Assembly (NCBI GenBank): GCA_965226155.1
Contig: OZ245331.1
Span: 466,681-530,680 of the forward strand
Length of the DNA: 64,000 nucleotides
Source: Gammaproteobacteria bacterium
GTDB lineage: Bacteria; Pseudomonadota; Gammaproteobacteria; Eutrophobiales; Eutrophobiaceae
Direction of reading: 5' to 3'
Positions 18,279 through 64,000 of the stretch are shown here, in pieces. Both the position numbers and the translations under genes were made by a program. Position 1 is the stretch's first letter, and each line of letters starts with the position of its first letter. The notes beneath the pieces were generated by a model that did no database searches, was not told the origin of the DNA, and was given only the letters and a program-made list of their open reading frames with translations.

Positions 18279-18314
18279 AGTCAACTAGATATAAATTTAT
18301 TAAATAAAATTTGT

Positions 18315-35948: not shown

Positions 35949-36022
35949 GCTTTATCCTTATATCGTAAATCTACTACCTGACAACATTTCGATACATTCT
36001 CCAACTATTACTTTCTTGTAAA

Positions 36023-39629: not shown

Positions 39630-39796
39630 AGATGATATCTAACCTAAATTTAGTCTAGGCTCATACACTATTCAATTATATTATATTGTCAAATACATAA
39701 TATTTATGTTGATTATATATATTCTCTAATATCATATATTACCAGATAGACTAAGCTGAATTTTAATAAGCTTGTTCAACCAGTTACAGGGCGAAA

Positions 39797-41047: not shown

Positions 41048-41085
41048 TTATCTCGGTTAAATGACAGCTGCAGGTTAGAATCGTC

Positions 41086-42111
41086 ATGACAATGCCATTT
41101 AATCAAGAATTGGTTCGATCTTTCCCCAAGGTCGAGCTTCATATCCATGTAGAGGCCTGTATCAGCGCAGAACGAATAGAGTTACTGTCCAGGGATGCCG
41201 GCGTATCCATGTTACGACCACGGGAGCAGCTATTTGAGTTCGAATCGCTGGCGGAATTCCTGGAGGTATTCGAGTGGTGGTGTGACCTGTTACGAACACC
41301 GGAAATCGCCGAACATATCGCCTACGACACCGCCAAACTGTTACACGACGATGGTATTGTCTACGCGGAAGTCCTGACCGGCCCCAGGTACTGGACACGG
41401 CTGGACTACAGGGAACTAATACCCGCTCTGGGGAGGGGCTACGAACGCGCCTTCCATGACGGCTATACGGATTGCTGTATCACCCCGTCTATCAGCCGGG
41501 AACAATCGGTAGACTGGTCCAACGAATTACTGGACTGGATCGAAAAAGAGAATCCTGCTCGCGTAGTAGGACTCGGGCTTGATGGTAATGAAGAGATGCT
41601 GGGGCGCACCTGCCCGAAATTCGAACAGGTTTTTAAACGTGCACACTCGTTGGGACTTGGCCGGACCGCTCATAGCGGGGAATCATCCGGTCCCGAAGGT
41701 GTCTGGGATGCCATTAACTACCTGAAGCTAGACCGTATCGATCATGGCGTACGGGCGGGCGGTGACCCTGAACTGGTACAACGCCTGGCGGAAGATCAGA
41801 TAACTTTGAATATCTGTCCAACATCCAACGTCCTGGTAGGTCTGTACGATTCCATTTCAGACATGCCCATCAGTGATTTTATCGAAGCAGGTGTGCCGGT
41901 AACGATCAATTCCGATGATCCGGAAACAATGAATACGCGGCTCAGCCGCGAGTTCCAGCTTGTAGGTGAAGACCTGAACTGGTCGATCAATGATGTAGCT
42001 GATCTTACACGCAATGCGATCAATGCCGCATTTTGTGATGAGCACAAGGCTTCCGAATTGCACGGGCAGCTGGACGAGTTTATGGTCAACCTGGACGAAA
42101 CCGGATTATAA
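41086..42111 (+). CDS. Adenosine/adenine deaminase-family protein
   Basis: The PKVELHIHVEA metal motif and later HSGES and SDDP blocks, 341 aa. Confidence 0.75.
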   Translation: MTMPFNQELVRSFPKVELHIHVEACISAERIELLSRDAGVSMLRPREQLFEFESLAEFLEVFEWWCDLLRTPEIAEHIAYDTAKLLHDDGIVYAEVLTGPRYWTRLDYRELIPALGRGYERAFHDGYTDCCITPSISREQSVDWSNELLDWIEKENPARVVGLGLDGNEEMLGRTCPKFEQVFKRAHSLGLGRTAHSGESSGPEGVWDAINYLKLDRIDHGVRAGGDPELVQRLAEDQITLNICPTSNVLVGLYDSISDMPISDFIEAGVPVTINSDDPETMNTRLSREFQLVGEDLNWSINDVADLTRNAINAAFCDEHKASELHGQLDEFMVNLDETGL

Positions 42112-42212
42112 GCTGATATCCCAATGTGTCACAGGTTACGCCACGGTCTTTTAGGCAATTGATGATTCATAGTTGCGTTGATGAAACTCAGCATTCATTT
42201 CTATCCTCTAGA

Positions 42213-43622
42213 TCAAACGTCTGCATAGTCCGCATGATTGCGAACGATCATCCGTTTCCCCTCTCTCAGCTCCGTCTCGTAGAAATCCTTGAACTCATTT
42301 AGCCCTCGGGTGACGCGTTCCCATAGATCGTCTTCATCCAATTCAGTGAACTTCCCGTTATGTCTGAGCAATTTTCCATCGACCATTACATCGTGAGTTT
42401 CCCCACCAGGGCCCTGCATGACTAGCCCTGCAATAATAGATGATTCCATATGTGGGAAGAGATTGCTGTCACGGCTGATATCGTAGGTGATCATGTCCGC
42501 CCGTTTACCAACATCAAGTGTGCCGATTTTATCTTCAAGGTGTAGCGCACTTGCACCTCTCGTCGTAGCCAGTTCCAGTGGTGTCCAGGGATGTTCCAAA
42601 TGGTGTTCTCGATCAGTTGTATCCTGAAGTTGCCAAGCTGCCTGCATAGCACGAAAAATGTTATGTGAGGCGTGGTCGGTACCAACACCTACCCGCATCC
42701 CTTTATGTAACATGTAAGCGACGCGTGTGTTTTCTCTATAATCCGGGCAACGAAGTGGGTTAAAAGCAACCGATACATCAAGATCGGCAAGCATGTCAAT
42801 CTGTTCATTGTTAAATGCAATTCCATGCCAGAGTATTGTTCGTGGAGTCAATACTCCCAGTTTCTGCAAGTGTTTCATGTAGCCACCGTCACTGGCCCAG
42901 AGTTTGTCACACTGTTCCATTTCGGGAACCCCCTCCCCGATATGAATGCCGAACGGTAAATCAAGCTGTTCAGCCAACTCTATCCCTTTGACAAGAATAT
43001 CTGTTTCGATATTCCAGGGAGCATCAGGACCTATGCCCACTTGCACGCGACCGTCCGGATCATGATACTTGGCTACCGCCTTTTCAATATTGGCAAGCTG
43101 AGCCGCTCCATCCTTTGCATCCTTTCGCTGGAAAGTAGTGAGCACATTGACATGGTTAATAGCGCGTGCGCCAGAGTCTAATATTGCCCGCGTTGTTGTA
43201 TCAGCCCATAGAAAATTATTGCTGGACGTGGTTGTGCCGTTTTTAAGCATATGTGCTTGACCAAACAGGGTAAGATCATAGGCGACTTCTTCAGAGTACC
43301 ATGCGACCGCTGGCCAAAAATAAGTATCCAGAATCTCTTCAACTGAAGGAATTACAGTATAATCCGCGTAGTTATAACAGACCATAGATCCCCATTCGCC
43401 AATATGTGCATGCGCATCAACAAGACCGGGCATTAGCAGTTTACCCTTGCCATCGACGACCGTTACCTCATTTATTTCTTCAATCTGGTCCAAGACTTCT
43501 GTAGTTTTTCCTACAGCTTTAATCGTGTTTCCTTCAACATAAACACTGCCACCCTTTATGACGTCTTTCGGTCTTGGTCGAACAATTACAAATTCAAAAT
43601 CTTTGAATAAATATTTTTGCAT
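42213..43622 (-). CDS. Amidohydrolase-family protein (TRZ/ATZ deaminase/chlorohydrolase-like)
   Basis: PGLVDAHAHIGE HxH motif, 469 aa. Confidence 0.75.
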   Translation of the reverse strand: MQKYLFKDFEFVIVRPRPKDVIKGGSVYVEGNTIKAVGKTTEVLDQIEEINEVTVVDGKGKLLMPGLVDAHAHIGEWGSMVCYNYADYTVIPSVEEILDTYFWPAVAWYSEEVAYDLTLFGQAHMLKNGTTTSSNNFLWADTTTRAILDSGARAINHVNVLTTFQRKDAKDGAAQLANIEKAVAKYHDPDGRVQVGIGPDAPWNIETDILVKGIELAEQLDLPFGIHIGEGVPEMEQCDKLWASDGGYMKHLQKLGVLTPRTILWHGIAFNNEQIDMLADLDVSVAFNPLRCPDYRENTRVAYMLHKGMRVGVGTDHASHNIFRAMQAAWQLQDTTDREHHLEHPWTPLELATTRGASALHLEDKIGTLDVGKRADMITYDISRDSNLFPHMESSIIAGLVMQGPGGETHDVMVDGKLLRHNGKFTELDEDDLWERVTRGLNEFKDFYETELREGKRMIVRNHADYADV

Positions 43623-49614: not shown

Positions 49615-50547
49615 TTGGAGGACAGAATGATGGAAGAATTGAACCTGCGGCATCTCAGGGCTTGGTTAACAGTAGTCCAGGAGGGGTCAGTCACCGCAGG
49701 CGCGCAGAAGATAGGCGTTTCCCAACCGGGAATTTCTCAACAAATAAAATCTCTCGAAGACTACTTCGGCGGCCAGCTGCTAGAAAGACTACAACATGGG
49801 GTTCAACCCAGTACTCTTGGCCGATCACTAATGGGGGATGCGCAAGCCACCCTTTCAGCAGCAACCCGTCTTGCCCGAAAGGCCCAAAGCATTACCGGCC
49901 TAGAGACAGGGATACTCGAAATCGCTACCCTGCCCACGCTAGTGGATGCCATTATGATTGAACCCATCCGACGTTGGCTTGCGGCATATCCGGGTGTAGC
50001 TATTCACTTAAGGGAGTTTCCCCAGCAATCAGCAATGACTAAGTCGGTTGCTCTCGGCGTAGGTGACTTAGCCATTGGTGTACGACCACCACGGTGGTCA
50101 GGTGAAGTTATCACGCTCGGTTGGGAACAGTTTGTTGTCGTGCTACCGCCAAATGACCCTCTTGCAGGACAAACAGAACCTATCGTACTGGCTGATCTCG
50201 CCGATCGTAACTGGATACTCTACGAACCCTCAAATGGTCTTGCTGACTATGTCAACTATGCCTGCGCAATGGCAAGCTTTCTGCCCAACAAGACAGTGGA
50301 AACCTCCCAGGTGGAGGTGGCTGTTCACCTGGCACTTGCCGGACTGGGTGCAGTACTTGTACCCCAAGCAAATGTCCCGTCGGATCTTGCACACAAGGCT
50401 TTACCTCTTGATCCCCCTATTGTTTGGGAAATTGCCGTTTATTCTCGATCAGAGTTGTCCCCTTCCGCTGCAGCCTTTGTTGAGTTCTTGGGTGATAGGG
50501 AGTGGTTGTCCTTACCAGCCAATGCCGTTGTGCTACCCGGAAGCTAA
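49615..50547 (+). CDS. LysR-family transcriptional regulator
   Basis: HTH block LRHLRAWLTVVQEGSVTAGAQKIGVSQPGISQQIKSLE. The probable true start is ATG 49627, preceded by GGAGG. Confidence 0.85.
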   Translation: MEDRMMEELNLRHLRAWLTVVQEGSVTAGAQKIGVSQPGISQQIKSLEDYFGGQLLERLQHGVQPSTLGRSLMGDAQATLSAATRLARKAQSITGLETGILEIATLPTLVDAIMIEPIRRWLAAYPGVAIHLREFPQQSAMTKSVALGVGDLAIGVRPPRWSGEVITLGWEQFVVVLPPNDPLAGQTEPIVLADLADRNWILYEPSNGLADYVNYACAMASFLPNKTVETSQVEVAVHLALAGLGAVLVPQANVPSDLAHKALPLDPPIVWEIAVYSRSELSPSAAAFVEFLGDREWLSLPANAVVLPGS

Positions 50548-50776
50548 ATAATTATCCTTCATCAAGCTTCTTATAAGAAACAGATTATGTCTAGTATATT
50601 TGTTTAGTCTTTGACTGATAGTCTAGTACGTTTTAGTCTTTTTTGTCCTGTGGGGCATTCCAGGAGGAAATTAATTTAATCGGGAGACATGTTTTGCATA
50701 TAATGACTGAGAGTGTCATCACTACACCCGCCCATTCGCTACAATTTCTATTTCTACGCAGAGGGTTAACTTATAG

Positions 50777-51880
50777 GTGATCATCATGACCATGCCGACT
50801 AATTGGGCACCGTCCAAAAATCAACTTCTCGATCTGTCTCGTGAGTACACAACAGAAGGCGAGCAAAGAATCTACGAAATGTACAGGCACTTCTGGCATC
50901 CCGTTGCTTACACCCATGACCTACAGCCGGATATAATGAACCACCAACTTCTGCCGGAACCATTAAAAGTGACCCTGTGTGGTCAGGATCTTGTGCTGGT
51001 GAAATTGAACGGCGAGATTCAAGCTTTCAATGATGTCTGTCCACATAAAGGAACAAGATTGTCTCTTGGTAAAGTTGTCGAAGGACCTGATGGGAAAGAA
51101 GCACTGCGCTGTGGTTATCATGGCTGGCAGTACGATATTAATGGTCAATGTACCCATATCCCGCAACGCCCGGACCTAGTCGGAAAGGTACGGGCCTGTG
51201 TCAAACCCTATCAGACTAGGGTAGCTTATGGCATGGTATGGGTTTGCCTGGAAGATGAATCCCATTTTTCATTCCCTGAGTTTCCCGAATGGAACGATCC
51301 GGAGTGGACCTTTCTGCCGGTGCCAGCCAGCAACTGGAACGTGGCAGCAACACGACGAATAGAAAACTATTGTGACCTGCTTCACTTCGCCTTTGTCCAT
51401 GACAAGTTCCTTGGCGAGATCACTGAGCCAGAAATACCTGAGCATAAAGTCTGGCGAGAGGATCCCGGTGTCTTGCGGATGACTTTTGATAAAATAACGA
51501 CCTACCGTGAAGGTCCCCCTGGTGCTCGACCCTTAGCAAAACGCAATTATCACATCTACATGCCAACGACGATACATCTTCACGTAGAGTCGGATGGGGC
51601 AAAGTATTTACTTTTTTTCCACCCGTCCCCGGTGGGTCCGAAGGAGGTCCGGAATTTCACTATTGCCGGTAGCACTTATTCCTCTCACGAGACCCTTTAT
51701 GAAGATCTGATCACGGTTGCGGAATTGACTTACGCACAAGACAAGGCATTGGTTGAATCGCAACGCCCGGAAATGTTGCAGGAAGATATTTCCTTTGAAA
51801 TGTATTTGAAGGATGCTGACACATTTACCCTGAACTATCGAACATGGCTAGTTGAACTTGCAAAGGAACTGTCTGAATGA
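50777..51880 (+). CDS. Rieske non-heme iron oxygenase alpha subunit, VanA/NdmA-type (about 365 aa)
   Basis: Rieske motif CPHKG…CGYHGW together with the mononuclear iron site (…HFAFVHD…). The probable start is ATG 50786 after AGGTGA. Confidence 0.8.
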   Translation: MIIMTMPTNWAPSKNQLLDLSREYTTEGEQRIYEMYRHFWHPVAYTHDLQPDIMNHQLLPEPLKVTLCGQDLVLVKLNGEIQAFNDVCPHKGTRLSLGKVVEGPDGKEALRCGYHGWQYDINGQCTHIPQRPDLVGKVRACVKPYQTRVAYGMVWVCLEDESHFSFPEFPEWNDPEWTFLPVPASNWNVAATRRIENYCDLLHFAFVHDKFLGEITEPEIPEHKVWREDPGVLRMTFDKITTYREGPPGARPLAKRNYHIYMPTTIHLHVESDGAKYLLFFHPSPVGPKEVRNFTIAGSTYSSHETLYEDLITVAELTYAQDKALVESQRPEMLQEDISFEMYLKDADTFTLNYRTWLVELAKELSE

Positions 51881-52065
51881 AAGTAACACTTGATAAGAAA
51901 AAGTGCATGAACTCTGGCATGTGTACTCAAGCTGCTCCTAAAATTTTTGAGATGGATGATGAAGGCGAACTAGTTATTTTAATTGAAGATGTCACTGATG
52001 AGCACCTTGGGGACGTAAAAGATGCAGTTGCATGTTGCCCCACCAACGCATTGCAACTCAAGTAG
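51877..52065 (+). CDS. Small single-cluster ferredoxin ([3Fe-4S]/[4Fe-4S] type)
   Basis: 62 aa with C-x2-G-x-C…CP cysteines. Overlaps the upstream stop (ATGA). Confidence 0.7.
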   Translation: MKVTLDKKKCMNSGMCTQAAPKIFEMDDEGELVILIEDVTDEHLGDVKDAVACCPTNALQLK

Positions 52066-52973
52066 TTCCTAATTTTAATACCATCCAAGTTGATACTTTA
52101 TCGACATTTCAGATCGATACCACTGTGAATGCGAAAGATGACAAAATAGTCTGGAACACTTGGTATCCCATTGGTGTTCCATCTGAGTTAGCGTATCGTG
52201 GCGCTACACATACCCGCTTACTTGATCATGAGATTGAGCTTCAAATTAAACTGCCACATCTTTCGGCAAGATGTGGAGGCAAAACACTACCACTGATAGA
52301 ACAGCTCGGTTATGTTTGGACGACACTCGGAGATCCTGAAATTTCTCCACAAAGATTACCTGAGTATGATGAACCAGATCGGTTCGTTATGAATGTTTTT
52401 TCGAGCCCGATAAAAAGCTGCGGGTTGCGGATGGTCGATAACGTCCTCGACAATGCACATTTTCCATTTGTACATCCTGGGATTCACGGTGATGAAGATC
52501 ACTTGGAGTTGAGCACTCATGAAACCTCTGTTGATGAAAACGGGGTCCTATGGTCTCACTCTCGCGAACGCTGGTATCCGTTAACGCAATCCATGGCAGT
52601 GTATTCGTATCGTGTCTCCAACCCATATTCCGTCATACTGTTAATTCATCGACCAATAATTAAGGGACAAGAACAACGCTATGATTTCGTAGGAGTTTTT
52701 ACGCAACCTACTAGTGAGGAAAACTTTATTCTTCATAAGATGTATGCCGGTGTTAAAGAAAATTGGACGGAACAGACTCAAATGCGCGCTGATGAACAAT
52801 GGGTCGCAGTTCAGGACAAGTATGTAATCGAAAAACACAACCCCAAAAAACTCGTAATCGATGAAAATTATGAATCTTCCATTTCTTCTGTCGATACTGC
52901 CTCTCTTGCATATCGAAACTGGCTTCGAGAAAACCATGTGCAGTATGGTGTTATTTATGAGAAAAGCTTCTGA
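52032..52973 (+). CDS. VanA-like oxygenase catalytic subunit lacking Rieske cluster ligands (NdmC-like)
   Basis: Retains the WYPIG…SEL N-terminal signature and the D-x2-H-x4-H iron site (DNAHFPFVH). The Rieske CxH/CxxH positions read …LPHLSARCGGKT…. The start may be internal (GTG 52122 gives about 283 aa). Confidence 0.65.
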   Translation: MLPHQRIATQVVPNFNTIQVDTLSTFQIDTTVNAKDDKIVWNTWYPIGVPSELAYRGATHTRLLDHEIELQIKLPHLSARCGGKTLPLIEQLGYVWTTLGDPEISPQRLPEYDEPDRFVMNVFSSPIKSCGLRMVDNVLDNAHFPFVHPGIHGDEDHLELSTHETSVDENGVLWSHSRERWYPLTQSMAVYSYRVSNPYSVILLIHRPIIKGQEQRYDFVGVFTQPTSEENFILHKMYAGVKENWTEQTQMRADEQWVAVQDKYVIEKHNPKKLVIDENYESSISSVDTASLAYRNWLRENHVQYGVIYEKSF

Positions 52974-52975
52974 CG

Positions 52976-53575
52976 ATGACTACATCTAATTCTGCTCCGA
53001 TAGCACTGGAGCGAGAAGTTTTTCCCAGAAACTTAATACGTGTAGGATTCAATGACAATGAATTCGTTCTTTGGAGGGATGACAATAATAAAATACAAGT
53101 TTGGGAGGATCGTTGCCCACATCGAAGCATACGATTGAGCGCTGGACGGAATCTCGGCGATGGTATTCAATGCATTTACCATGGTTGGAAATTTAATTGT
53201 AATGGCTTCGTCATTGACATTCCCGCGGGAAGAAATCAACCGTTGCCCAAAATTAACGTGATGGTGATAGCAAGCAAAACTATTGATGGATTTGTATGGG
53301 TATCATCAGACGATGAAGTGCTTATCCCCCCTGATTTTGCTCCAGACAACAACGATGTGCTATTGCGACCTATATCCGTGAATGCTTCGGCTAAAGTGAC
53401 GCAGAATTTGCTGGACCAGGAATACGACATCACTCTGATTGCCACACCCACAAGCAATGACTTCTGCACCATTTTTGGTTATGCCCCACCTTGTGATAAT
53501 AAATCACCATTAGAAACGGCCCGCTATTGGAATAGTATGTTGACTACAACAAGACGCTTGCTAGAAACTGGTTAA
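52976..53575 (+). CDS. Stand-alone Rieske [2Fe-2S] domain protein
   Basis: CPHRS…CIYHGW motif in 199 aa with no catalytic iron motif. Starts 3 nt after the Rieske-less subunit. Confidence 0.75.
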   Translation: MTTSNSAPIALEREVFPRNLIRVGFNDNEFVLWRDDNNKIQVWEDRCPHRSIRLSAGRNLGDGIQCIYHGWKFNCNGFVIDIPAGRNQPLPKINVMVIASKTIDGFVWVSSDDEVLIPPDFAPDNNDVLLRPISVNASAKVTQNLLDQEYDITLIATPTSNDFCTIFGYAPPCDNKSPLETARYWNSMLTTTRRLLETG

Positions 53576-53580
53576 ATCTA

Positions 53581-54225
53581 ATGATCGAACTTTACGACTA
53601 TGCCCTTTCAGGTAACTGTTATAAAATACATCTGTTACTTAAGTGGCTAAAATTAGATTATAAAAAAATACCAATCGATTTCTATCCGGGTGTTGAGCAC
53701 AAGTCCGATGCCTTTCTTGAAATTAACCCACTAGGGCAACTTCCTGTATTGCGGGATGAGACATCGGTTATCCGCGATGCGCAGGCAATATTGGTACATC
53801 TGGCAACGACCTATGATAATTCGGGTAAGTGGTATCCACTAAATCACTCTGAATTGCTTGGGCAAATTCAAAGTTGGCTTGCGTTTGCTGACTCTATTAC
53901 CGCTACTTGTTCGGCTGCTCGATTACACGATGCAATGTTTTACACAATAAATATACACAAAGCCCGGCATGATGGAGAGCATTTACTAAGGATTTTGGAC
54001 GAGCATCTTTGGTTTCGTGAACAAGAAAATGCTGACTGGATCTGTACAGATAGACACCCATGCATTGCTGACATAGCATGTTTTCCCTATGTCGCACTCT
54101 GTGAAGAAGGTGGAATTTCACAACTACCATTTCCAGCAATTCAACGTTGGCTGCAAAGATTTATGCGAATTAATGATTTTGAACCAATGGCAGGGATGAT
54201 GCCACTAAAAATGGCCAGTCTTTAG
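53581..54225 (+). CDS. Glutathione S-transferase-family protein (NdmE-like position)
   Basis: A thioredoxin-like N-domain (MIELYDYALSGNCYKIHLLL…) followed by a helical C-domain, 214 aa. Confidence 0.75.
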   Translation: MIELYDYALSGNCYKIHLLLKWLKLDYKKIPIDFYPGVEHKSDAFLEINPLGQLPVLRDETSVIRDAQAILVHLATTYDNSGKWYPLNHSELLGQIQSWLAFADSITATCSAARLHDAMFYTINIHKARHDGEHLLRILDEHLWFREQENADWICTDRHPCIADIACFPYVALCEEGGISQLPFPAIQRWLQRFMRINDFEPMAGMMPLKMASL

Positions 54226-54387
54226 TTCATAATGTAATTAATTTTATACTCTGATTTGCAGTTCAGGTATAAGATAAATGTTATGATCAACATAAATCCT
54301 ATATCTTTGACTATTAATATATCCAAGCATACCATTTCTAAAAAAACCGGCAATTTGAAGAAAAAAATTATCTGAGAACTTTTTTAA

Positions 54388-55365
54388 ATGTGTGGATTAA
54401 CCGAAGAAGAAGTAAAACAGATTAAAAGCGAACTCCAACCCGAACCGTTGCTTGACAAGGGTGGGCATAAGGTTTCAAAGAGTCCTTGGGGGCCTGCAGA
54501 TGAAATCGGACGACTTAATTGGATAAAACCTGAATCTGTTCAAACGATTATATCAAAAATGGATGGTCGTCATGTCTTTGACCTCAGCGTGGATTATCGT
54601 TCGGACATGCCATCTTGGACTGAAGCAGGTGATCCTCCATTCAGTATTTGGATGACGCATACACCAAAAGGTGAGATCGCGTTTGGTCGCTCTGGTTATA
54701 GTGGTGAAATTCATAAAGAATATAGCTACTCAGGCGATGCGATTTCGATGTACACCCACTGCGGAACCCATATAGATACTCTTAACCATATGGGCTATTG
54801 GGGTAAATTTTGGAATGGCTGGACTCAGGATGAGCATTTGGGAAGTATGGTATGGACTAAAGGTGGCACTGATCGTTATCCCCCCATTATTGCAAGAGGA
54901 GTTATGCTAGATGTAGCAACTATGCATGGTGTCGATATCCTTGAAAATCATTATGAAATTACACCAAAAGATATTCAGGATACTGCAAAAAAACAAGGTG
55001 TCAAATTCCAGAAAGGAGATATTGTTCTAATCCGTACCGGGCGCATGCGCATGTGGCCAGACTTAGACTATCTTGCTGCATCGCCTGGTATAAATGTTGA
55101 TACAGCGCGATGGCTTTGTGAAGAAGCAGGCGCCATGTGCATCGCAGGTGACAACATAGGACTTGAGCCACAACCATACCATGGCCAATATGCCCCAGTA
55201 CATTGTTATATGTTCTCTACTGCCGGTAGTCAGATTATTGAAGTCGTAAACATGGAAGAGATAGCAGCAGAAAAAATATACGAATTCGCATTTATGGGTT
55301 TTCCAATGAAGATATACGGTTGCACCGGTGCACCCATGCCGTCAGTCGCCATTCCCTTGAGGTAA
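54388..55365 (+). CDS. Cyclase-family protein (kynurenine formamidase-like fold)
   Basis: HCGTHIDTLNH motif, 325 aa. Confidence 0.65.
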   Translation: MCGLTEEEVKQIKSELQPEPLLDKGGHKVSKSPWGPADEIGRLNWIKPESVQTIISKMDGRHVFDLSVDYRSDMPSWTEAGDPPFSIWMTHTPKGEIAFGRSGYSGEIHKEYSYSGDAISMYTHCGTHIDTLNHMGYWGKFWNGWTQDEHLGSMVWTKGGTDRYPPIIARGVMLDVATMHGVDILENHYEITPKDIQDTAKKQGVKFQKGDIVLIRTGRMRMWPDLDYLAASPGINVDTARWLCEEAGAMCIAGDNIGLEPQPYHGQYAPVHCYMFSTAGSQIIEVVNMEEIAAEKIYEFAFMGFPMKIYGCTGAPMPSVAIPLR

Positions 55366-55369
55366 TTAC

Positions 55370-55849
55370 ATGCTAAAACTTAAGCGTCTCGACAATATAG
55401 ATATTGTCGTTAATGACTTTCCCAAGATGGTGGACTTCTATAAGAATGTCCTTGGCCTCCACTTACACCCTCATGGCTATGAACCTGAAAAAGGCTGGGC
55501 TATGTTTATGTGTGGTGATGTAGACTTAGTATTGTTGTCTGTCCCACATGCAGATCGTGGCGAACGACAGAGGACAGGAAATTATGTGCAAGACCCTGCT
55601 GGTGTACATTCCTTTGCTATGCAGGTGGAAGATATTGACGAAGCTATTGCTGAACTGGACAAACATCAAATTCAATGGGCTGGTGAGACAAATGTCTATG
55701 GTGCTGGTGCGTTTCTTGATGGAATCCCTAGTGATGATTTTGAAGGAATTTGGTATCGCTTCCGTTCATTCTATGACCCGGAAGGAAATGTCACCCACAT
55801 TTGTGAAGTTCACCCTCCACCCGGATTTGATCGAAGTAAAGCATTCTAA
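55370..55849 (+). CDS. VOC-family protein (glyoxalase/extradiol dioxygenase-like)
   Basis: 159 aa with a VOC module pattern (…IDIVVNDFPKMVDFY…HSFAMQVEDID…). Confidence 0.6.
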   Translation: MLKLKRLDNIDIVVNDFPKMVDFYKNVLGLHLHPHGYEPEKGWAMFMCGDVDLVLLSVPHADRGERQRTGNYVQDPAGVHSFAMQVEDIDEAIAELDKHQIQWAGETNVYGAGAFLDGIPSDDFEGIWYRFRSFYDPEGNVTHICEVHPPPGFDRSKAF

Positions 55850-55864
55850 GAGATAATCTAAACT

Positions 55865-56785
55865 ATGGCGAAATTGCCCCGTTTAGCATTCTGCCTCACC
55901 ATTGGTATGGATGCGTTGTCGTTATGGGTCACCTCATTTAAAAGCACTAATGCAAGTATGATCTCTCGTGGAGAGATGGAGATAGATGGAACACGCCGCG
56001 TTCTTGCACTCTTGGATAAGTATAAAATTAATTCCACGTTTCTCGTGCCAGGTCATACAGCACTCGCCTATCCGAATCTTATTAAAGATATCATAGAACG
56101 TGGACATGAATTAGCTTATCACGGCTGGATGCATGAGGATGCTCGCGAATTTAGTATTGATGAGCAGCGCTTAATTATTGAGCGTGGGTTAGAGGCTTTA
56201 GATCACGTTACTGGTATACGGCCCCGTGGCCATGTATCACCTGCCTGGAACATGAGTGAACACACAATGGAATTAGTTGATGAATTTGGCTTTGACTTTG
56301 ACGGAAGTCGGATGTCTACAGATAATAGAGCGGTCTATGTACGTAAAAATGATCGCTGGACCCTAAATGGCGCATTTCATTTTGGTGAATTGACCGATGT
56401 AGTTGGAATTCCAGTAGCATGGGCATTGGATGATGTACCTATATTCGAATTTGCCTGGGGAGAAATCCCCGGACTTGCCCCTGCCTCTGTAGCTGAGGAA
56501 ACATGGATGGGTGAATTTGATTACGCATATGAAAATTCTCCAGGTGGCGTTTTTAACCTTACTGTCCATCCTCAATGCATTGGCCGTGGCGCGAGGATAA
56601 AAATGCTGGAACGTCTCATTGTGCATGCCACCGAGCAATCCGGGGTAGAATTTCTCCGCCAATCTGACTATGTAGATATGTGGCGAGAACTCAACCCTCG
56701 TGACGAGTGGCGATTAAAAAACCCTGAACTCGCTGGTGATGGTTCGATTTCAGCTTTACCCTCTATGGCGAAAAAAGGCGTATGA
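55865..56785 (+). CDS. Polysaccharide deacetylase (NodB-homology/PuuE-like) family protein
   Basis: 306 aa with a NodB-type …STFLVPGHTA… and His-rich blocks (HELAYHGWMHED). Confidence 0.6.
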   Translation: MAKLPRLAFCLTIGMDALSLWVTSFKSTNASMISRGEMEIDGTRRVLALLDKYKINSTFLVPGHTALAYPNLIKDIIERGHELAYHGWMHEDAREFSIDEQRLIIERGLEALDHVTGIRPRGHVSPAWNMSEHTMELVDEFGFDFDGSRMSTDNRAVYVRKNDRWTLNGAFHFGELTDVVGIPVAWALDDVPIFEFAWGEIPGLAPASVAEETWMGEFDYAYENSPGGVFNLTVHPQCIGRGARIKMLERLIVHATEQSGVEFLRQSDYVDMWRELNPRDEWRLKNPELAGDGSISALPSMAKKGV

Positions 56786-56788
56786 CTT

Positions 56789-57541
56789 TTGCAAGAGCCA
56801 CGACGAATACTGATCACAGGAGGCACTTCGCCAATAGGTCATGCGATCGTAAACCGCATGGTGGAAGAAGGTAATCGCGTTGTATTTACAGGAAGAAATC
56901 ATGAACGTGGCAATGCATTAGCAAAAACAACTAGAAGTACGTTTCTGCAGGGTGACATTTGTGATTCAAGCACAATCGACCATATCGTTCAAAGCACTGA
57001 ACAGACTCTTAGTGGCCTCGACGCATTAATTCTAAATGCCGGTGTGTTACACCGAAACACTATCTCAGCAACCAGCGATTCAGATTGGGATACAACGCTA
57101 GAAACTAACTTAATAGCCCCATTTCTTTTTGTTAAGGCGTGTTTACCCATGCTTAAAATCGGTGGTGGCACTATTGTAGCAATCACATCAGGTACTGCAT
57201 CATGGCCAGAGATGGAGCTTGGTGCATACTCAATCTCAAAACGCGCACTCCAATGTATGACTCAGATGCTCGCAGTTGAAGTCGCACCATATGGAATAAC
57301 TGTTAACGCAATTTGTCCTGGCGAAACTGATACTGGCATGTCCGCAATTACGTCAGTCAAGGAATCAAAAAACCACAAACCTCCTATTGTTCCGCCCCTA
57401 GGGCGACTTGCTACACCAGCAGATATCGCTGCGACTGTGGCTTTTTTTCTTAGTCCAGACTCTGCATTCTGTACTGGGACATCGCTTACTGTTGATGGGG
57501 GTATGCATGCATCTTTACGAGCCAGTGACGTGAACAAATGA
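56789..57541 (+). CDS. SDR-family oxidoreductase
   Basis: TGGTSPIG…NAG…Y-x3-K pattern, 250 aa. Confidence 0.85.
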   Translation: MQEPRRILITGGTSPIGHAIVNRMVEEGNRVVFTGRNHERGNALAKTTRSTFLQGDICDSSTIDHIVQSTEQTLSGLDALILNAGVLHRNTISATSDSDWDTTLETNLIAPFLFVKACLPMLKIGGGTIVAITSGTASWPEMELGAYSISKRALQCMTQMLAVEVAPYGITVNAICPGETDTGMSAITSVKESKNHKPPIVPPLGRLATPADIAATVAFFLSPDSAFCTGTSLTVDGGMHASLRASDVNK

Positions 57542-58308
57542 TTTCTGAATTATCAGGCCAAACTGCGCTTGTTACTGGAGGTACCTCAGGTATTGGACGC
57601 TCTATTGTTGAGCACTTGGCCAATGCAGGTATGAAAGTTGCCTTTACTGGACGTGACACTGATCGTGGCGCTCAAGTCTCAGCTACAGCACGGGCGACCT
57701 TTATTCGTGCTGATGCTTCTGATCGACTTCAGTGTGACCAAGCTATTGATCTTACTCTATCAAATTTACATGGCCAAATTGATCTCTTCGTCGCTTGTGC
57801 CTCGATGGTATTTGCTTCGCCATTAGAATCCACACCTGAATTAATATTTCGTGAACTTGTAGAAGTCAACCTCACTTCCACATTTCGATACTCTCGCGCA
57901 TGCTTCGATATCATGAGATCCCAGGGAAACGGCTCAATCATACACATCGTTTCAGATGCAGCACTTCGCGGAATACACCATATTCCTGTGTACTCCATTA
58001 CTAAAGCAGGAGTGCTTACGCTCTCTGAAGTAATGGCAGCCGAAGCCGCATCCTACAACATTCGTGTCAATGCCATTTGTCCGGGTGCGGTAGTCCCGGG
58101 CGTTCAAACAACACCTAAAGGGTATGAAGACCATGCTGAAGACGCTTCAACATGGGGGGCAGCACCATCAGGGCGCCATGGCACCGGAGCAGACATCAGT
58201 CAAGCTGTTCTCTGGCTCGCTTCAGATGCTGCTTCACACATAAGTGGGGCGACGATCAGAATAGATGGTGCTGCATCAGTTGCAATGCGAGATCGAGTAC
58301 GTGCCTAA
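57538..58308 (+). CDS. SDR-family oxidoreductase
   Basis: VTGGTSGIG and YSITKAG, 256 aa. Start overlaps the upstream stop. Confidence 0.85.
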   Translation: MISELSGQTALVTGGTSGIGRSIVEHLANAGMKVAFTGRDTDRGAQVSATARATFIRADASDRLQCDQAIDLTLSNLHGQIDLFVACASMVFASPLESTPELIFRELVEVNLTSTFRYSRACFDIMRSQGNGSIIHIVSDAALRGIHHIPVYSITKAGVLTLSEVMAAEAASYNIRVNAICPGAVVPGVQTTPKGYEDHAEDASTWGAAPSGRHGTGADISQAVLWLASDAASHISGATIRIDGAASVAMRDRVRA

Positions 58309-59647
58309 ATTAGTGACTGAGTTAGTTGAACAGACACTATCTCGTCTGCGTGCTACTGAACCCATAGTCCATGCATACGTGCATGTTGATGAACACCAAG
58401 TTCGCTCTACCGCTGAACAATTAGATACAATTGAGCCAAAAGGCCTTTTGCATGGAATACCTTTTGCGGTAAAAGAAGTCATAGAAGTCGCTGGGGTTCC
58501 AACATCCGGCGGTTGCACTGTACTAAAAGATCATATACCGGATAAGGATGCAACGGTTGTGCAACGCTTACGAGAGGCAGGTGCATTACTCATAGGAACA
58601 CAAATATCACATGAACTCACCTGTGGTCTTGATGAGCCACCTACACGGAACCCATGGGATATCAATTGCTATCCTGGCGGATCGAGTGCGGGTGCCGGCG
58701 TCTCTGTCGCGGTCGGATCAGCGAATTTTGCACTCGGAACTGACGCAGCTGGCTCCATAAGAATACCAGCGGCAATGACCGGTGTTGTTGGATTGAAACC
58801 AACTGCAGGTTTACTCAGTAAATATGGTGTATTACGGCAAGCGAGTGCACCTTCGATTGACAATATTGGTATTACATCACGAAACATCTCCGAAGTTAGG
58901 CAGATACTGAGCGTAATAGCTGGCCCAGATCCTGCTGATGCAATGACACTTAATTGTACTGCTAATACTGAACTCGATAATCAATCAACAAGTCTGGATA
59001 TTAAAGGAATACGGATCGCAGTTCTCGGAAAGAAAACACGGGAGTTACTTAATGAAATTTGGGTGATTGATTCGGAGATTGACGATGCATTTAATAATGC
59101 CTGTGAGCTACTACAGACAGCTGGTGTGGAATTAGTCAATATAGAATTACCAGAATTAGTAAATGCTGTACCGGCTATCGTTACTTTTTTTTCTACAGAA
59201 CTGGCTGCTGCACATCGAAAACTAATTAGTGAAAATGCCTCAAATTATCATCCAGAAGTATATACGATGCTGAAAAATTCGCTTGATACTCCCGCAAGTG
59301 CTGTAATGGATGCAGTCCAAATACGTATGCGTCTTTGTAAAGAAGTTACTGCAGCATTTATCTCTACTAATATAGATTTTTTACTTACTCCTACAACGCC
59401 ACGTGTCGCGATGCAGTTGTCTACCTTTGATCCTACAAAAGAATTGGGTAGTTTGATCCCTTACACCTGTGGATTTAACCTTACCGGTCAACCAGCGGTT
59501 AGCATACCTTGTGGATTCACATCTACCGGGCTGCCAATAGGACTTCAGATTGTCGGTTTACCCTACAATGACACAAACGTACTCCGTTTTGCCCAAGCCT
59601 ATGAACAACATACTTCGTGGCACAAACAAACACCTTCAATTATCTGA
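58265..59647 (+). CDS. Amidase (amidase-signature family)
   Basis: GGSSAGAGVSVAVGSANFALGTDAAGSIRIPAA signature. The true start is probably GTG 58301, because 58265 overlaps the SDR gene. Confidence 0.85.
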   Translation: MVLHQLQCEIEYVPKLVTELVEQTLSRLRATEPIVHAYVHVDEHQVRSTAEQLDTIEPKGLLHGIPFAVKEVIEVAGVPTSGGCTVLKDHIPDKDATVVQRLREAGALLIGTQISHELTCGLDEPPTRNPWDINCYPGGSSAGAGVSVAVGSANFALGTDAAGSIRIPAAMTGVVGLKPTAGLLSKYGVLRQASAPSIDNIGITSRNISEVRQILSVIAGPDPADAMTLNCTANTELDNQSTSLDIKGIRIAVLGKKTRELLNEIWVIDSEIDDAFNNACELLQTAGVELVNIELPELVNAVPAIVTFFSTELAAAHRKLISENASNYHPEVYTMLKNSLDTPASAVMDAVQIRMRLCKEVTAAFISTNIDFLLTPTTPRVAMQLSTFDPTKELGSLIPYTCGFNLTGQPAVSIPCGFTSTGLPIGLQIVGLPYNDTNVLRFAQAYEQHTSWHKQTPSII

Positions 59648-59668
59648 TCGCACTGGAAGCAAATCTAA

Positions 59669-60874
59669 ATGAATAACAATTTTCATATAACTTCATTAAA
59701 AGAGATTATTGCCCTGGGTGTTCTGGGTGTTGCAGGTAATATTGCAGTATTTATTTTACCAGTGATTGTTGGGGCTTTGGTCGATTATGTAAATTTATCA
59801 ATCCAACAAGCTAGCTACGTAGCCTCTGCAGATATGTTCGGGCTGGGTATCGGTACACTAGCATGGTCACGATTTATTTTAACAAGCAATTGGAGGATTT
59901 TTGCTTTTGCATCAGCAGTATTACTTTTCCTAGGCAACGTGTTTTGTGGGATTTCTGATACTTTTCTTGCTGTTGGTTTAAGTCGATTTGTTGCGGGTAT
60001 CGGTGCGGGACTAATGCTGACAATTTGTGTTTCCGGTTTAGCTCAGACAGCTAACCCAGATAGAGTGATGGGACTATTTGGCATGGTCGTAACAGCGGTT
60101 GCTGCATTATGTCTTTTCATTTTTCCTTTCTTATTGGTCGAGAGTGGTTACAAGGGAATGTTTTTTGCACTTGCAGGATTTGCTTGTTTGGGCAGCGTAT
60201 CTTGCTGGTTTATCCCAAAATTTTCCTTAGTCAAAGACAATTCAAAGGGAAATAAAGTACCTGAAGAAAAAATAAAATCATCAACACATACATCGCTTCT
60301 AAATCGTACAGTTACTTTATTTGGTGTATTCCTTGCCTTTTTTTGCATGTCATTATTCTTAGTATATTTAGAAAGAGTTGGCGTTTCGAATGGGTTTGTT
60401 GTAAGCCAAATTTCTGTTGGATTGGGTACCGCACAGTTCACAGGTGTATTCGGAGCCATGACTGCAGCTATCATCTCAACTCGATTTGGGAATCGCATGT
60501 TCCCTATGATGTTTGCCATTGCAATGCCATTATTTGGGGCAATGGTTATTGCAGCCACCTCGAGTTTCTCTTTATATCTGATATCTGCAAGTGCACTAAT
60601 TTTTTGTTGGAGCATGCTCTATCCCTATGTCATAGGATTATTAATTTCATTAGATGCAACAGCAAAACTTGTCACATATGCCCTAGTCGCAATGACTTTC
60701 AGTAAATCTTTGAGTCCAATTCTAGGGGCCTTCCTTGTCACTGAAACTGATTTTTCTACAGCTTATTGGTTTTGTGCCGGTGGCTTTGCATGTTCAGCTA
60801 TTTTATTTTTACCTGCAATTATTATTTCTGACAAAGATTTAAAAAAATTTACAAGAAGCAACGCGTTAATCTAA
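59669..60874 (+). CDS. MFS transporter
   Basis: 401 aa with 12 hydrophobic segments. Confidence 0.75.
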   Translation: MNNNFHITSLKEIIALGVLGVAGNIAVFILPVIVGALVDYVNLSIQQASYVASADMFGLGIGTLAWSRFILTSNWRIFAFASAVLLFLGNVFCGISDTFLAVGLSRFVAGIGAGLMLTICVSGLAQTANPDRVMGLFGMVVTAVAALCLFIFPFLLVESGYKGMFFALAGFACLGSVSCWFIPKFSLVKDNSKGNKVPEEKIKSSTHTSLLNRTVTLFGVFLAFFCMSLFLVYLERVGVSNGFVVSQISVGLGTAQFTGVFGAMTAAIISTRFGNRMFPMMFAIAMPLFGAMVIAATSSFSLYLISASALIFCWSMLYPYVIGLLISLDATAKLVTYALVAMTFSKSLSPILGAFLVTETDFSTAYWFCAGGFACSAILFLPAIIISDKDLKKFTRSNALI

Positions 60875-60950
60875 TTTATTTAAATAACCTTATGTAAATA
60901 TTAGTTAAAGCCACCGACACTTAACAGTACCCTATTAAACGTTTGATTTA

Positions 60951-61163
60951 TTATTGTTTTAACTTTTTAAGGGCTTCTTGAACGATGGGCTCCAAGTCTT
61001 CTCCATTTTCTTTCAGATGTTGAAGTATCTGATTTCGCATGCGCGGATCCCAGAATTTTTTTATGTGATTTGCAATTCCTGTTACAGCTTCGTTATGTAC
61101 TGGTTCACTACTAAAAAAGTTTCCAATATCATTTGCCATCTCTACCAATCTTCGTATTCTCAT
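60951..61163 (-). CDS. fdsD: Formate dehydrogenase delta subunit (FdsD-like)
   Basis: 70 aa (…IANHIKKFWDPRMRNQ…), positioned after fdhD as in fdsGBACD operons. Confidence 0.55.
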   Translation of the reverse strand: MRIRRLVEMANDIGNFFSSEPVHNEAVTGIANHIKKFWDPRMRNQILQHLKENGEDLEPIVQEALKKLKQ

Positions 61164-61174
61164 AATTCTATAAT

Positions 61175-62008
61175 CTATTTTTTTATCCGGTCACCACAAT
61201 TGTAAACAACATGAGAATGTTCTCTTGCAAAATCTACCAGAGTAAGTTCGCATTCTGTTGCAAGACGGATTGCTAACGCTGTAGGTGCAGAAATAGCTGC
61301 CATAAAACAAATACCAGCCAATGCTGCCTTTTGAACCATCTCAAAACTCGCGCGGCTAGTAATTATAAGAAAACCTCTATCAAGATTAATTGTGGTTTCA
61401 GCAGTTTTTATCGCGCCAATTAATTTATCCAGTGCATTGTGACGGCCCACATCTTCTCGCATTAATAATATATCTCCACTTAGATCCAGCCAGCATGCCG
61501 CATGTACAGCACCGGTTAGTATATTTAATGATTGCAATTGCATAATAGATTCAAGACCATGGTGTAATACATCTGCGTCGATACTAACACCTGGACCAAC
61601 TATGGAAGGATGGCGTATAGCACCATCCAAAGACGTTGCTCCACATATACCACAACCGGTACAACCAGCAATATTTCTAGTCCGTTCTTGTAAACCAATA
61701 GCATTCTCTTTAGGAATTGTTATATGTAGTTCGATTCCATTTTCATGCTGCTGGATATCAAGCTTGTGAATTTCATTAGGAGCTACAACTATTTCTTCAC
61801 TTAAGGTAAATCCGATAGCAAAATCTTTAATGTCAGTTGGTGTCGCGAGCATGACTGCATAAGGAATTCCGTTATACATAAATGCGATTGGGATTTCTTC
61901 TGCAATCTGATCACTAGCAGATTCATAAGATCCAGATTTCCAGCGCTCTACCTTGAAGGATGAGCTTCCTTTACTATTATCCAATAAATTTTCATCAGAC
62001 AACATCAT
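61175..62008 (-). CDS. fdhD: Formate dehydrogenase accessory sulfurtransferase FdhD/FdsC
   Basis: …TGCGICG… followed by C-terminal SRASFEMVQKAALAGI…AISAPTALAIRLA blocks. Confidence 0.8.
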   Translation of the reverse strand: MMLSDENLLDNSKGSSSFKVERWKSGSYESASDQIAEEIPIAFMYNGIPYAVMLATPTDIKDFAIGFTLSEEIVVAPNEIHKLDIQQHENGIELHITIPKENAIGLQERTRNIAGCTGCGICGATSLDGAIRHPSIVGPGVSIDADVLHHGLESIMQLQSLNILTGAVHAACWLDLSGDILLMREDVGRHNALDKLIGAIKTAETTINLDRGFLIITSRASFEMVQKAALAGICFMAAISAPTALAIRLATECELTLVDFAREHSHVVYNCGDRIKK

Positions 62009-62012
62009 TTTA

Positions 62013-64000
62013 TCAGGTAACTACATCCCGGTTTTTATATAAGAGTTTTTGCTGTTTTGAAAACTTGCGATAACGGATCTGCCAATTTGATGGGTTGTTA
62101 ACCTTTTGAGCCTGTACCGCAGTTACTTTGTATTCCGGACAGTTAGTTGCCCCATCAGAATGATCACTAGTTACAACATTAGCACCGGTCTCAGGGAAAT
62201 GAAATGTCGTATACACAACGCCCGGCTGAACACGCTCAGTCACAATGGCACGCAGGACAGTTTCCCCTGAACGGCTATTGATACCAACCCAGTCGTCTGT
62301 CTCTATACCACGATCCTGGGCATCATGGGGATGGATTTCCAAACGATCTTCATCATTCCAGATTACATTCTCGGTTCGACGTGTTTGAGCACCAACATTA
62401 TATTGCGACAGTATCCTGCCTGACGTTAAAATTAATGGATACTTTGAATTGTTTTTCTCATGAGAAGGCACATATTCAGTTAACATGAACTTACCTTTGC
62501 CACGCACAAATTCACCGACATGCAACACCGGTGTACCTTCAGGAGTTTTCTCATTACATGGCCACTGGATACTACCCAGTTGATCTATTTTAGAATAGCT
62601 GACACCGGTAAATGTAGGTGTTAGTTTTGCTATTTCATCCATGACCTCAGAAGGATGTTGATAGTTCATCGGGTAACCAAGTGCATTGGATAACATACAA
62701 GTAATTTCCCAGTCTTCCTTGCCGGCTAGAGGTGGCATTACTTTACGTACAGGTGAGATACGTCGTTCTGCGTTAGTGAAAGTTCCATTCTTCTCAAGAA
62801 ATGAGGAACCAGGCAGAAATACATGTGCATATTTAGCTGTCTCGTTAATAAACAAGTCTTGAACAACTACGCATTCCATCGCCTCGAGCGAAGCAATAAC
62901 GTGCTGTGTATCTGGGTCGGACTGGGCGAAGTCCTCGCCTTGAATATAAATTCCTTTGAAACTGCCATCCAAAGCTGCCTCAAACATATTGGGAATGCGT
63001 AGACCAGGTTCGGAAATTAAGGGCCTGCCCCATAATGTTTCGAAGTTATGACGCACAGTGTCGTCCGAGACATGCCGATAACCAGGAAATTCATGAGGGA
63101 AAGAACCCATATCGCATGCACCCTGGACATTGTTTTGGCCACGTAAAGGATTTACACCGACACCTTTACGACCCAAGTTTCCTGTTGCCATTGCGAGGTT
63201 AGCAATCCCAATAACGGCGGTAGAACCCTGGGCATGTTCTGTCACTCCCAAACCATAATAAATAGCACCATTACCGGCACTAGCATACAAACGTGCAGCG
63301 CCTCGTATTATTTCAGACGGAACACCGCAAACATCTTCCATGGCTTCCGGCGTATGGCGTTCTTCAGAAACAAAATTTTTCCATTTAAGGTATGCATCTG
63401 ATTCGCAACGCTCTTTTACATAGTCTTCTTTCACCAGTCCTTCAGTAACTATCACGTTTGCTAGCGCAGTTAGTACTGCGACATTAGTACCTGGTTTTAA
63501 CTTAAGGTGGTAATCCGCTTCAATATGTGGTGACCTTACCATAGCGATACTACGAGGATCGATAATGATCAATTTCGCGCCTTCCCTTAATCGACGTTTC
63601 ATTTGAGAGCTGAAAACGGGATGTCCTTCAGTAGGATTGGCACCGATAATAATCATGACATCGGTTTCCATCACAGAATCAAAATTTTGTGTACCTGCTG
63701 ATTCTCCTAATGTGTTTTTGAGGCCATAACCGGTTGGTGAATGACATACTCGAGCACAGGTATCAACGTTATTATTACCGAATCCTGCTCGTACCAGTTT
63801 CTGAACCAGATAGGTTTCTTCATTTGAACAACGGGATGATGTAATGCCTCCGATCGAATTCTTGCCATATTCCTTTTGAATACGCTTGAATTCATTGGCT
63901 GCATAATCAATGGCTTCTTCCCAAGAGACTTCCCTCCACTGATCTTTAATGGAATCTCGAATCAATGGTTTTTTAACCCGGTCAGGATGAGAAGCATATG
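62013..64000 (-). CDS. fdsA: NAD-dependent formate dehydrogenase alpha subunit (molybdopterin oxidoreductase), 3' part; N-terminus lies beyond the window end
   Basis: The frame is open to base 64000 (…YASHPDRVKKPLIRD…). The molybdopterin domain (GITSSRCSNEE…, CARVCHSPT) and C-terminal MopB-barrel are present. Confidence 0.85.
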   Translation of the reverse strand, partial: YASHPDRVKKPLIRDSIKDQWREVSWEEAIDYAANEFKRIQKEYGKNSIGGITSSRCSNEETYLVQKLVRAGFGNNNVDTCARVCHSPTGYGLKNTLGESAGTQNFDSVMETDVMIIIGANPTEGHPVFSSQMKRRLREGAKLIIIDPRSIAMVRSPHIEADYHLKLKPGTNVAVLTALANVIVTEGLVKEDYVKERCESDAYLKWKNFVSEERHTPEAMEDVCGVPSEIIRGAARLYASAGNGAIYYGLGVTEHAQGSTAVIGIANLAMATGNLGRKGVGVNPLRGQNNVQGACDMGSFPHEFPGYRHVSDDTVRHNFETLWGRPLISEPGLRIPNMFEAALDGSFKGIYIQGEDFAQSDPDTQHVIASLEAMECVVVQDLFINETAKYAHVFLPGSSFLEKNGTFTNAERRISPVRKVMPPLAGKEDWEITCMLSNALGYPMNYQHPSEVMDEIAKLTPTFTGVSYSKIDQLGSIQWPCNEKTPEGTPVLHVGEFVRGKGKFMLTEYVPSHEKNNSKYPLILTSGRILSQYNVGAQTRRTENVIWNDEDRLEIHPHDAQDRGIETDDWVGINSRSGETVLRAIVTERVQPGVVYTTFHFPETGANVVTSDHSDGATNCPEYKVTAVQAQKVNNPSNWQIRYRKFSKQQKLLYKNRDVVT

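Follow-up and report, generated by a model that had tools for sequence, protein, structure and literature searches.

Five consecutive plus-strand genes at positions 50777–54225 of a 64-kb stretch of gammaproteobacterial DNA (contig OZ245331.1, positions 466,681–530,680; the whole stretch is referred to here as the window) include three that probably encode a split Rieske monooxygenase of the NdmCDE type. In this enzyme the catalytic iron, the Rieske cluster and a glutathione S-transferase (GST) fold would each reside on a polypeptide of its own, with electrons arriving through a small ferredoxin encoded in the same block and N-demethylation as the most likely chemistry. The first open reading frame (ORF), ORF1 (50777–51880, 367 aa), encodes a complete α3-type Rieske monooxygenase with Pfam Rieske (E = 1.9e-19) and VanA_C (3.4e-10) domains, and is followed by ORF2 (51877–52065, 62 aa), a single-cluster ferredoxin matching Fer4_13 (1.4e-12) and Fer4_15. 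ORF3 (52032–52973, 313 aa) is an NdmC-like catalytic subunit that matches VanA_C (3.6e-11) and has no Rieske match, ORF4 (52976–53575, 199 aa) is a free-standing Rieske module (2.7e-17) with no other Pfam domain, and ORF5 (53581–54225, 214 aa) is an NdmE-like protein matching GST_N (1.2e-12). All five were found where an earlier note on this DNA had placed them, and the motifs quoted there (CPHKG...CGYHGW, LPHLSARCGGKT, D140-x2-H143-x4-H148 and CPHRS...CIYHGW) recur in the translations; the spacing between ORF3 and ORF4, given there as 3 nt, measures 2 nt (52974–52975). The genes are tightly packed, ORF2 overlapping ORF1 by 4 nt and ORF5 starting 5 nt past the end of ORF4. ORF1 may start at an alternative ATG at 50786, as its counterpart in a 92%-identical metagenomic locus (L001) is annotated with 364 aa.

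NdmCDE, which catalyses the N7-demethylation of 7-methylxanthine with release of formaldehyde, was introduced as an unprecedented case of a Rieske oxygenase that is divided into two parts and relies on a GST. Its subunits form a 360-kDa α3β3γ3 complex that depends on NdmE to be soluble and to assemble (PMC10380055; PMC4408171), and according to a 2026 paper its structure is still unsolved (PMC13237722). An ndm cluster on a Pseudomonas putida plasmid (L089, NZ_CP143525.1), found by plasmid tblastn, stands in here for NdmC, NdmD and NdmE of strain CBB5; compared with the crystallised proteins of CBB5, its NdmA reaches 764 bits and its NdmB 785, and its gene order agrees with the published map frmA...ndmA...ndmB...ndmC-ndmD-ndmE-fghA (PMC4408171). 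In a search with a profile of fusion-type catalytic subunits, a named NdmC was not among the 120 matches listed of more than 5,000 relatives. The likeness to NdmA/B and NdmC-D-E drawn in the earlier note holds for each part: ORF1 is 32% identical to NdmA of the reference cluster, ORF3 matches NdmC along its whole length with 31% identity (284 aa, E = 1e-38), ORF4 is 31% identical to NdmD residues 11–168 (BLASTP, E = 5e-23), and ORF5 is 55% identical to NdmE over its full length (212 aa, E = 7e-93). The two systems thus share a Rieske-less VanA_C subunit, an NdmD-type Rieske module, an NdmE-like GST and a co-located oxygenase of the NdmA/B class. They differ in that the Rieske domain of the window is a 199-aa polypeptide of its own while that of NdmD is fused to an FNR/plant-ferredoxin reductase, in that the window carries the gene of a 62-aa 3Fe-4S-type ferredoxin instead of a reductase, in the order catalytic subunit, Rieske protein, GST found in the window, and in the host, a low-GC bacterium with TonB and major facilitator superfamily (MFS) transporters rather than a soil pseudomonad.

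Against this background ORF1 is unexceptional. Its best solved relatives are NdmA (6ick, E = 6.9e-42) and NdmB (2.3e-41), and in alignment it carries both the Rieske CxH...CxxH ligands and the catalytic D-x2-H-x4-H...D site on one polypeptide, so that by sequence it is a regular member of the α3 Rieske monooxygenases of the NdmA/NdmB/VanA class. In NdmA, NdmB, VanA, DMO, SxtT and GxtA, cluster and active site likewise share one chain, whereas ORF3 and ORF4 appear to be derived from the same fold (Foldseek TM 0.65–0.8) as two complementary degenerate paralogues.

The catalytic half of this pair is ORF3. When ORF3, 11 Rieske-less relatives, ORF1 and four full-length relatives were realigned together, a deletion of about 55 residues became apparent, common to all Rieske-less members and lying exactly over the CxH...CxxH loops, with the flanking strands of the Rieske fold retained. 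The iron site is intact, as is the bridging Asp, N137, D140, H143, H148 and D262 being invariant in the alignment, and the same N-D-H-H-D set is kept in 120/120 Rieske-less proteins across all related loci. The realignment agrees with the earlier description of a VanA-like subunit that keeps D-x2-H-x4-H and has lost both Rieske ligand pairs, and ORF3 reads as a vestigial cluster-less Rieske fold joined to an intact mononuclear-iron domain. Its AlphaFold model (pLDDT 83.6, residues 1–26 disordered) superposes on SxtT and GxtA with a Foldseek TM of 0.75, and on NdmA and NdmB with 0.65. From the ATG at 52032, ORF3 would share 34 nt with the ferredoxin gene; because homologues have 273–290 aa and the first 26 residues of the model are disordered, a GTG start at 52125 giving a 282-aa product is favoured and is the probable true start. 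In a DNA comparison L001 was 98% similar, too close to discriminate between the start codons.

ORF4 retains all four cluster ligands (C47, H49, C66, H69; CHCH), and its resemblance to NdmD extends well past the BLASTP match. A hidden Markov model (HMM) of the free-standing Rieske proteins (202 positions) aligns end-to-end, through positions 5–201, with NdmD residues 7–244, and covers in the same manner the N-terminal ~240 residues of every NdmD-type fusion; against ordinary oxygenases the Rieske core alone aligns (positions 24–116). Because the coverage is end-to-end, ORF4 is taken to correspond to the whole of the extra module in NdmD and not just to a generic Rieske domain. In an hhalign comparison of the ORF4 family with full-length oxygenases (probability 99.9), ORF4 residues 3–149 align with 37–201, a span that includes the Rieske domain and the start of the catalytic domain and stops just short of the His ligands. 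The AlphaFold model (pLDDT 94.7) shows a Rieske domain followed by a small α/β stub that ends in a long helix; this C-terminal stub of about 85 aa is derived from the catalytic domain and is devoid of iron ligands. The whole model superposes on full-length α subunits (GxtA, SxtT, NdmA, DMO) with a TMq of ~0.8. A match in sequence between the C-terminal helix of ORF4 and that of the oxygenases was considered but found no support, since the hhalign alignment stops at residue 149 and structural superposition alone spans the helix. Taken together, sequences and models make ORF3 and ORF4 look like complementary degenerate descendants of an α3-type oxygenase subunit, with the catalytic gene ahead of the Rieske gene, whereas a full-length oxygenase has its Rieske domain first. 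Two metagenomic proteins of 482 aa (P0106 and P0107) carry the catalytic subunit fused in frame to the Rieske protein in this same reversed order, and would be either circularly permuted oxygenases, if real, or artefacts of assembly or frameshift. A third metagenomic protein (P0181, 580 aa) is a tandem fusion of two catalytic subunits, again either real or an artefact of the same kinds.

The arrangement found in the window is widely distributed. A pattern scan of 185,579 species-representative genomes located 412 loci with ORF3 relatives, each from a species-level genome. A set of 91 loci, comprising the 80 best of the 412, other fetched loci and the window, was classified with home-built HMMs: a free-standing Rieske gene is present in 54–55 of the 91 and an NdmD-type fusion in 27, while no locus has both. 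By Pfam, the fusions (574–619 aa) combine Rieske, FAD/NAD-binding and Fer2 domains, and neighbouring proteins of ~315 aa are PDR/VanB-type reductases. Where a Rieske-less subunit has a Rieske gene beside it, a GST gene is nearly always found no more than 3 kb away. The triad of Rieske-less catalytic subunit (CAT), Rieske protein (RIE) and GST co-occurs in dozens of genomes; this co-occurrence and the loss of Rieske ligands in ORF3 are the opposite of the result that the earlier note had named as refuting its reading. Free-type triads come in two orders, CAT-RIE-GST and RIE-CAT-GST, in genera that include Paracoccus, Hoeflea, Leisingera, Devosia, Rhizobium, Mesorhizobium, Gluconobacter and Komagataeibacter; hosts of the fused type are Acidimicrobiia, Labrys, Methylopila, plasmids of Sinorhizobium and Mesorhizobium, P. 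putida, and the caffeine degrader Paraburkholderia caffeinilytica. A profile of the free-standing Rieske protein found 394 matches at E ≤ 1e-30 among 1.84 billion representatives, and of the best 150 of these some 146 are stand-alone proteins (140–310 aa) and two are fusions. Public annotation of the family is generic ('hypothetical protein', 'Rieske 2Fe-2S domain-containing protein', 'glutathione S-transferase'). The earlier note had proposed that the free-standing form would be an undescribed variant: no description of it was found in the searchable papers, a coverage that does not extend to the founding 2013 NdmCDE paper, but the arrangement proved common and not peculiar to the window. It is a variant of the NdmCDE logic that is widespread and apparently unstudied. 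In their abstract, Summers et al. (2013) reportedly describe split oxygenase/GST clusters as occurring more broadly.

What sets the window apart is its electron supply, rather than the free-standing Rieske form. The closest relatives are uncharacterised alphaproteobacterial clusters from Paracoccus, Hoeflea, Leisingera, Gluconobacter and Komagataeibacter, whose catalytic subunits are 54–57% identical to ORF3; there, the same order of complete oxygenase, CAT, RIE and GST is followed by a PDR/VanB reductase and usually by a second triad, in the order RIE-CAT-GST. The window and its metagenomic twin L001 have neither reductase nor second triad. The absence of an FNR-type reductase noted earlier is upheld across the 64 kb: neither Pfam, run on essentially every ORF that reaches 150 aa, nor a motif search in all ORFs down to 70 aa brought up an FNR/PDR-type reductase. 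Among 87 related loci, a ferredoxin of the ORF2 type occurs in the window and L001 alone, between the complete oxygenase and CAT. Its motif (C10-x2-S-x2-C16, here C10-MNSGM-C16, ...C54-P55) points to a 3Fe-4S cluster and fits the single-cluster ferredoxins of Fer4_13 (~60–80 aa, CxxXxxC...CP); its best solved relatives are the Pyrococcus furiosus ferredoxin (E = 7.6e-9) and a Mycobacterium tuberculosis ferredoxin that partners a P450 (4.4e-7). Electrons would most likely arrive through ORF2, the presumably co-transcribed and proposed donor, which would itself be reduced by a ferredoxin reductase whose gene lies outside the window. A small ferredoxin gene inside the oxygenase operon with the reductase encoded elsewhere is also a feature of the three-component systems of Batie classes II and III, but ORF2 is of the Fer4_13 3Fe-4S/4Fe-4S type, familiar mostly as a partner of P450s, and not a Rieske or plant/putidaredoxin-type [2Fe-2S] protein.

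The clusters with a reductase differ from the window in a further respect, as the third Rieske ligand, kept in ORF4, is mostly lost in the Rieske protein of their first triad. Overall, this Cys is replaced by Gly, Ala or Asp (CHGH, CHAH, CHDH) in 16 of 70 free-standing Rieske partners, at loci L010–L021, L024 and L002–L004 (e.g., L014:10621-11358 and L002:10846-11454), all within the CAT-RIE-GST clade to which the window belongs. Nearly all of these loci, L021 excepted, hold a second triad, RIE-CAT-GST, with an intact Rieske protein.

Genomic context points to N-methylated purines or related N-heterocycles as the likely substrate class, and oxidative N-demethylation is the most likely reaction. 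Upstream of the block, positions 35430–43622 encode the small and large subunits of a xanthine dehydrogenase (XDH)-family molybdoenzyme, a CDA-fold deaminase, a GcvT-type folate-binding protein, an adenosine deaminase that scores above its NCBIfam cutoff, and an amidohydrolase resembling TRZ/ATZ enzymes or 8-oxoguanine deaminase. The upstream region further encodes two MFS transporters and a TonB receptor, and its deaminase, amidohydrolase and transporter part is syntenic in L001. Similar neighbours recur elsewhere: at locus L005 the triad lies between xdhABC and genes for urate oxidase, OHCU decarboxylase and HIU hydrolase, and a Bmp-type binding protein is encoded within 10 kb of 39 of 54 free-type and 16 of 27 fused-type loci. 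The closest plasmid relative (L088, NZ_CP118673.1:116835-123386) is located on pKNA08 of Komagataeibacter nataicola, isolated from a kombucha tea culture. This plasmid is conjugative and carries one complete and two split oxygenases with one reductase, flanked by Tn3, IS3 and IS5 transposases; that its three oxygenases match the three N-methyl groups of caffeine is offered as a suggestion only.

From these elements a working mechanism may be proposed. Electrons would pass from NAD(P)H through an unlinked ferredoxin reductase and ORF2 to the Rieske clusters of ORF1 and ORF4, and from there to the iron sites of ORF1 and ORF3. ORF4, an internally truncated α-subunit paralogue whose active site has been lost, would supply its Rieske cluster in trans to ORF3, which would have lost its own [2Fe-2S] cluster and would use its 2-His-1-carboxylate iron site to activate O2 and hydroxylate the substrate. 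ORF5 is proposed, by analogy with NdmE, as the scaffold whose GST fold would hold ORF3 and ORF4 together, and by the same analogy the three would probably assemble as a 3:3:3 complex of about 235 kDa. Hydroxylation of an N-methyl group would give a carbinolamine that collapses with release of formaldehyde, while ORF1, as a conventional complete oxygenase of the NdmA/B class, would act on another position or on a related substrate.

Several observations weigh against this proposal. The vestiges that ORF3 and ORF4 each keep of the other's domain leave the packing of the subunits a puzzle. Ligand loss in 16 of 70 Rieske partners, within the window's own clade, implies that a redox-active partner is not always maintained, and conservation of the GST is much higher than a mere scaffold would suggest. 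ORF2 and its reductase are putative partners. As to the substrate, the XDH-like and deaminase genes, except for the adenosine deaminase, fall below equivalog cutoffs, and the purine-type genes are separated from the block by transporter genes. Finally, at ~31% sequence identity to NdmC and to the NdmD N-terminus, substrate and regiochemistry are not transferable.

It is conceivable, if on balance doubtful, that the architecture is as described while the substrate is not a methylated purine but another marine N-methyl heterocycle, a guanidinium or creatinine-type compound, or a methoxy-aromatic, with the purine neighbours being coincidental. The low identity to NdmC would be consistent with this, as would the best solved relatives of ORF3 and ORF4, which are SxtT and GxtA, hydroxylases of saxitoxin-type alkaloids, ahead of NdmA and NdmB. 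The window itself is an IS-rich (insertion sequence) mosaic catabolic island with genes of the creatinine/N-methylhydantoin type, and the lineage-specific cyclase, VOC, deacetylase, short-chain dehydrogenase/reductase (SDR) and amidase genes downstream of the block suggest further processing of a ring. Against a coincidence stand the recurrence of Bmp-type nucleoside/nucleobase binding proteins and urate-pathway genes beside triads in unrelated genomes, and the origin of the closest plasmid homologue in a tea fermentation. Moreover, the best solved relatives of ORF1 are NdmA and NdmB, and the sole characterised members of the family demethylate methylxanthines (PMC4408171). N-methylated purines thus remain the preferred substrate class.

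The role of ORF5 is subject to a similar uncertainty. Across 90 triads the GST is the most conserved member in 89, with a median identity to the window protein of 53–56%, compared with 31–35% for the other two parts. The family also keeps a theta-class-like N-terminal Ser motif ('LS..CYK'), and homologues of glutathione-dependent formaldehyde dehydrogenase are encoded near 13 of 54 free-type loci and in true ndm clusters. These features would fit a protein that is more than a scaffold and whose chemistry is conserved, such as the trapping of released formaldehyde by bound glutathione or a gating of electron transfer. Such a role is rather unlikely: NdmE has been described as non-catalytic (PMC4408171, PMC10380055), the usual 'ES' pair that binds the γ-glutamyl moiety is 'DA' throughout the family, and the strong conservation could come simply from the presence of two binding interfaces. 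Scaffolding of ORF3 and ORF4 stays the proposed function of ORF5.

An improbable alternative assigns ORF4 to the soluble Rieske-type ferredoxins (such as BphF, CarAc and T4moC), shuttling electrons from a reductase to both ORF1 and ORF3. ORF4 is indeed a small separate protein with a complete set of Rieske ligands, and it has weak PDB matches to CarAc (E = 2.1e-3) and T4moC (2.2e-3) and a weak NCBIfam match to a MocE-family ferredoxin (3.9e-3). However, oxygenase Rieske domains match it about 10 orders of magnitude better (7e-14, against ~2e-3 for the ferredoxins), and all of its top 50 Foldseek matches are oxygenase α subunits, with zero Rieske ferredoxins among them. Nor does its size fit, as ferredoxins of this class have ~105–115 aa while ORF4 has 199, including the conserved, structured C-terminal stub that superposes on oxygenase α subunits. 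Its end-to-end counterpart, the N-terminal module of NdmD, is itself part of a tight complex; its gene always adjoins those of a Rieske-less subunit and a GST; and a separate ferredoxin is already present in ORF2. As for the notion that ORF3 and ORF4 are functionless debris of a full-length oxygenase gene broken by frameshift or decayed to a pseudogene, the vestiges of the missing domains would fit it, but the reversed gene order, the conservation of separate ORFs with intact ligands across many genera and the confident AlphaFold models of both proteins leave it almost no probability, and the conservation data effectively refute it. A split oxygenase with a Rieske subunit acting in trans is accordingly the reading retained here.

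Among the other neighbours of the block, a LysR-family regulator (49615..50547, plus strand; Pfam HTH_1 and LysR_substrate) lies directly upstream of ORF1. Its position is the same in L001, LysR genes also flank the triads of L002–L005, and it is a candidate regulator of the ORF1–ORF5 block. A scan of positions 50400–61200 for promoters and terminators was uninformative on the limits of the operon, finding promoter-like sites at a frequency below chance and no terminator between the GST and cyclase genes. The proposal that downstream cyclase, SDR, amidase and formate dehydrogenase genes form a demethylation island with the block finds no support in co-occurrence. The cyclase, VOC, deacetylase, SDR and amidase genes go together with the module in L001 only, a conservation that does not extend to fdhD and the formate dehydrogenase genes even in that locus; what had been described as an NAD-formate dehydrogenase at 60951–64000 is FdhD together with a molybdopterin oxidoreductase, on the minus strand.

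Further afield in the window, a set of genes of the creatinine/N-methylhydantoin type (10689–19754) includes two isochorismatase-family hydrolases and hydantoinase B and A, as well as a CDA-fold deaminase, a creatinase-like M24 peptidase and an amidohydrolase. Transposase genes are found at 25523–26485, 28158–29192, 31615–32577 and 33856–34764; these are IS30-like copies with HTH_38 and rve domains and one copy with HTH_29 and rve_3, and two of them, of ~320 aa, have near-identical domain matches. A serine dehydratase is split into α and β ORFs at 29304–30685, and together with the transposases suggests a mosaic island shaped by insertion sequences. Two cyclase-family (PF04199) genes are present, one beside an isochorismatase gene (26605–27414) and the other directly downstream of the GST gene (54388–55365).

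In a rough neighbour-joining tree, built without support values, the NdmD-type fusions are nested within the free-standing forms, which suggests that the NdmD fusion was derived from a free-standing Rieske protein. A broader and more tentative picture, less likely than not, may also be drawn. The free-standing triad would be the original form, and the prevailing one, of a large family still unstudied, in which two complementary degenerate α paralogues are clamped by an unusually conserved GST whose role goes beyond scaffolding. Interchangeable electron modules (a PDR reductase, a fused reductase or a 3Fe-4S ferredoxin) would serve this core, and marine and soil bacteria would use it to demethylate methylated purines derived from nucleic-acid turnover and alkaloids.

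As three small separate proteins free of a reductase fusion, the triad offers a more tractable target for studying the delivery of a Rieske cluster in trans, and the resemblance of both halves to degenerate α-subunit paralogues bears on the origin of the split itself. The exchange of a reductase for a ferredoxin in the window suggests that the electron-supply module of these systems is exchangeable. Lastly, the recurrent nucleobase and nucleoside context of the triads points to a possibly widespread route for the recycling of N-methylated purines.

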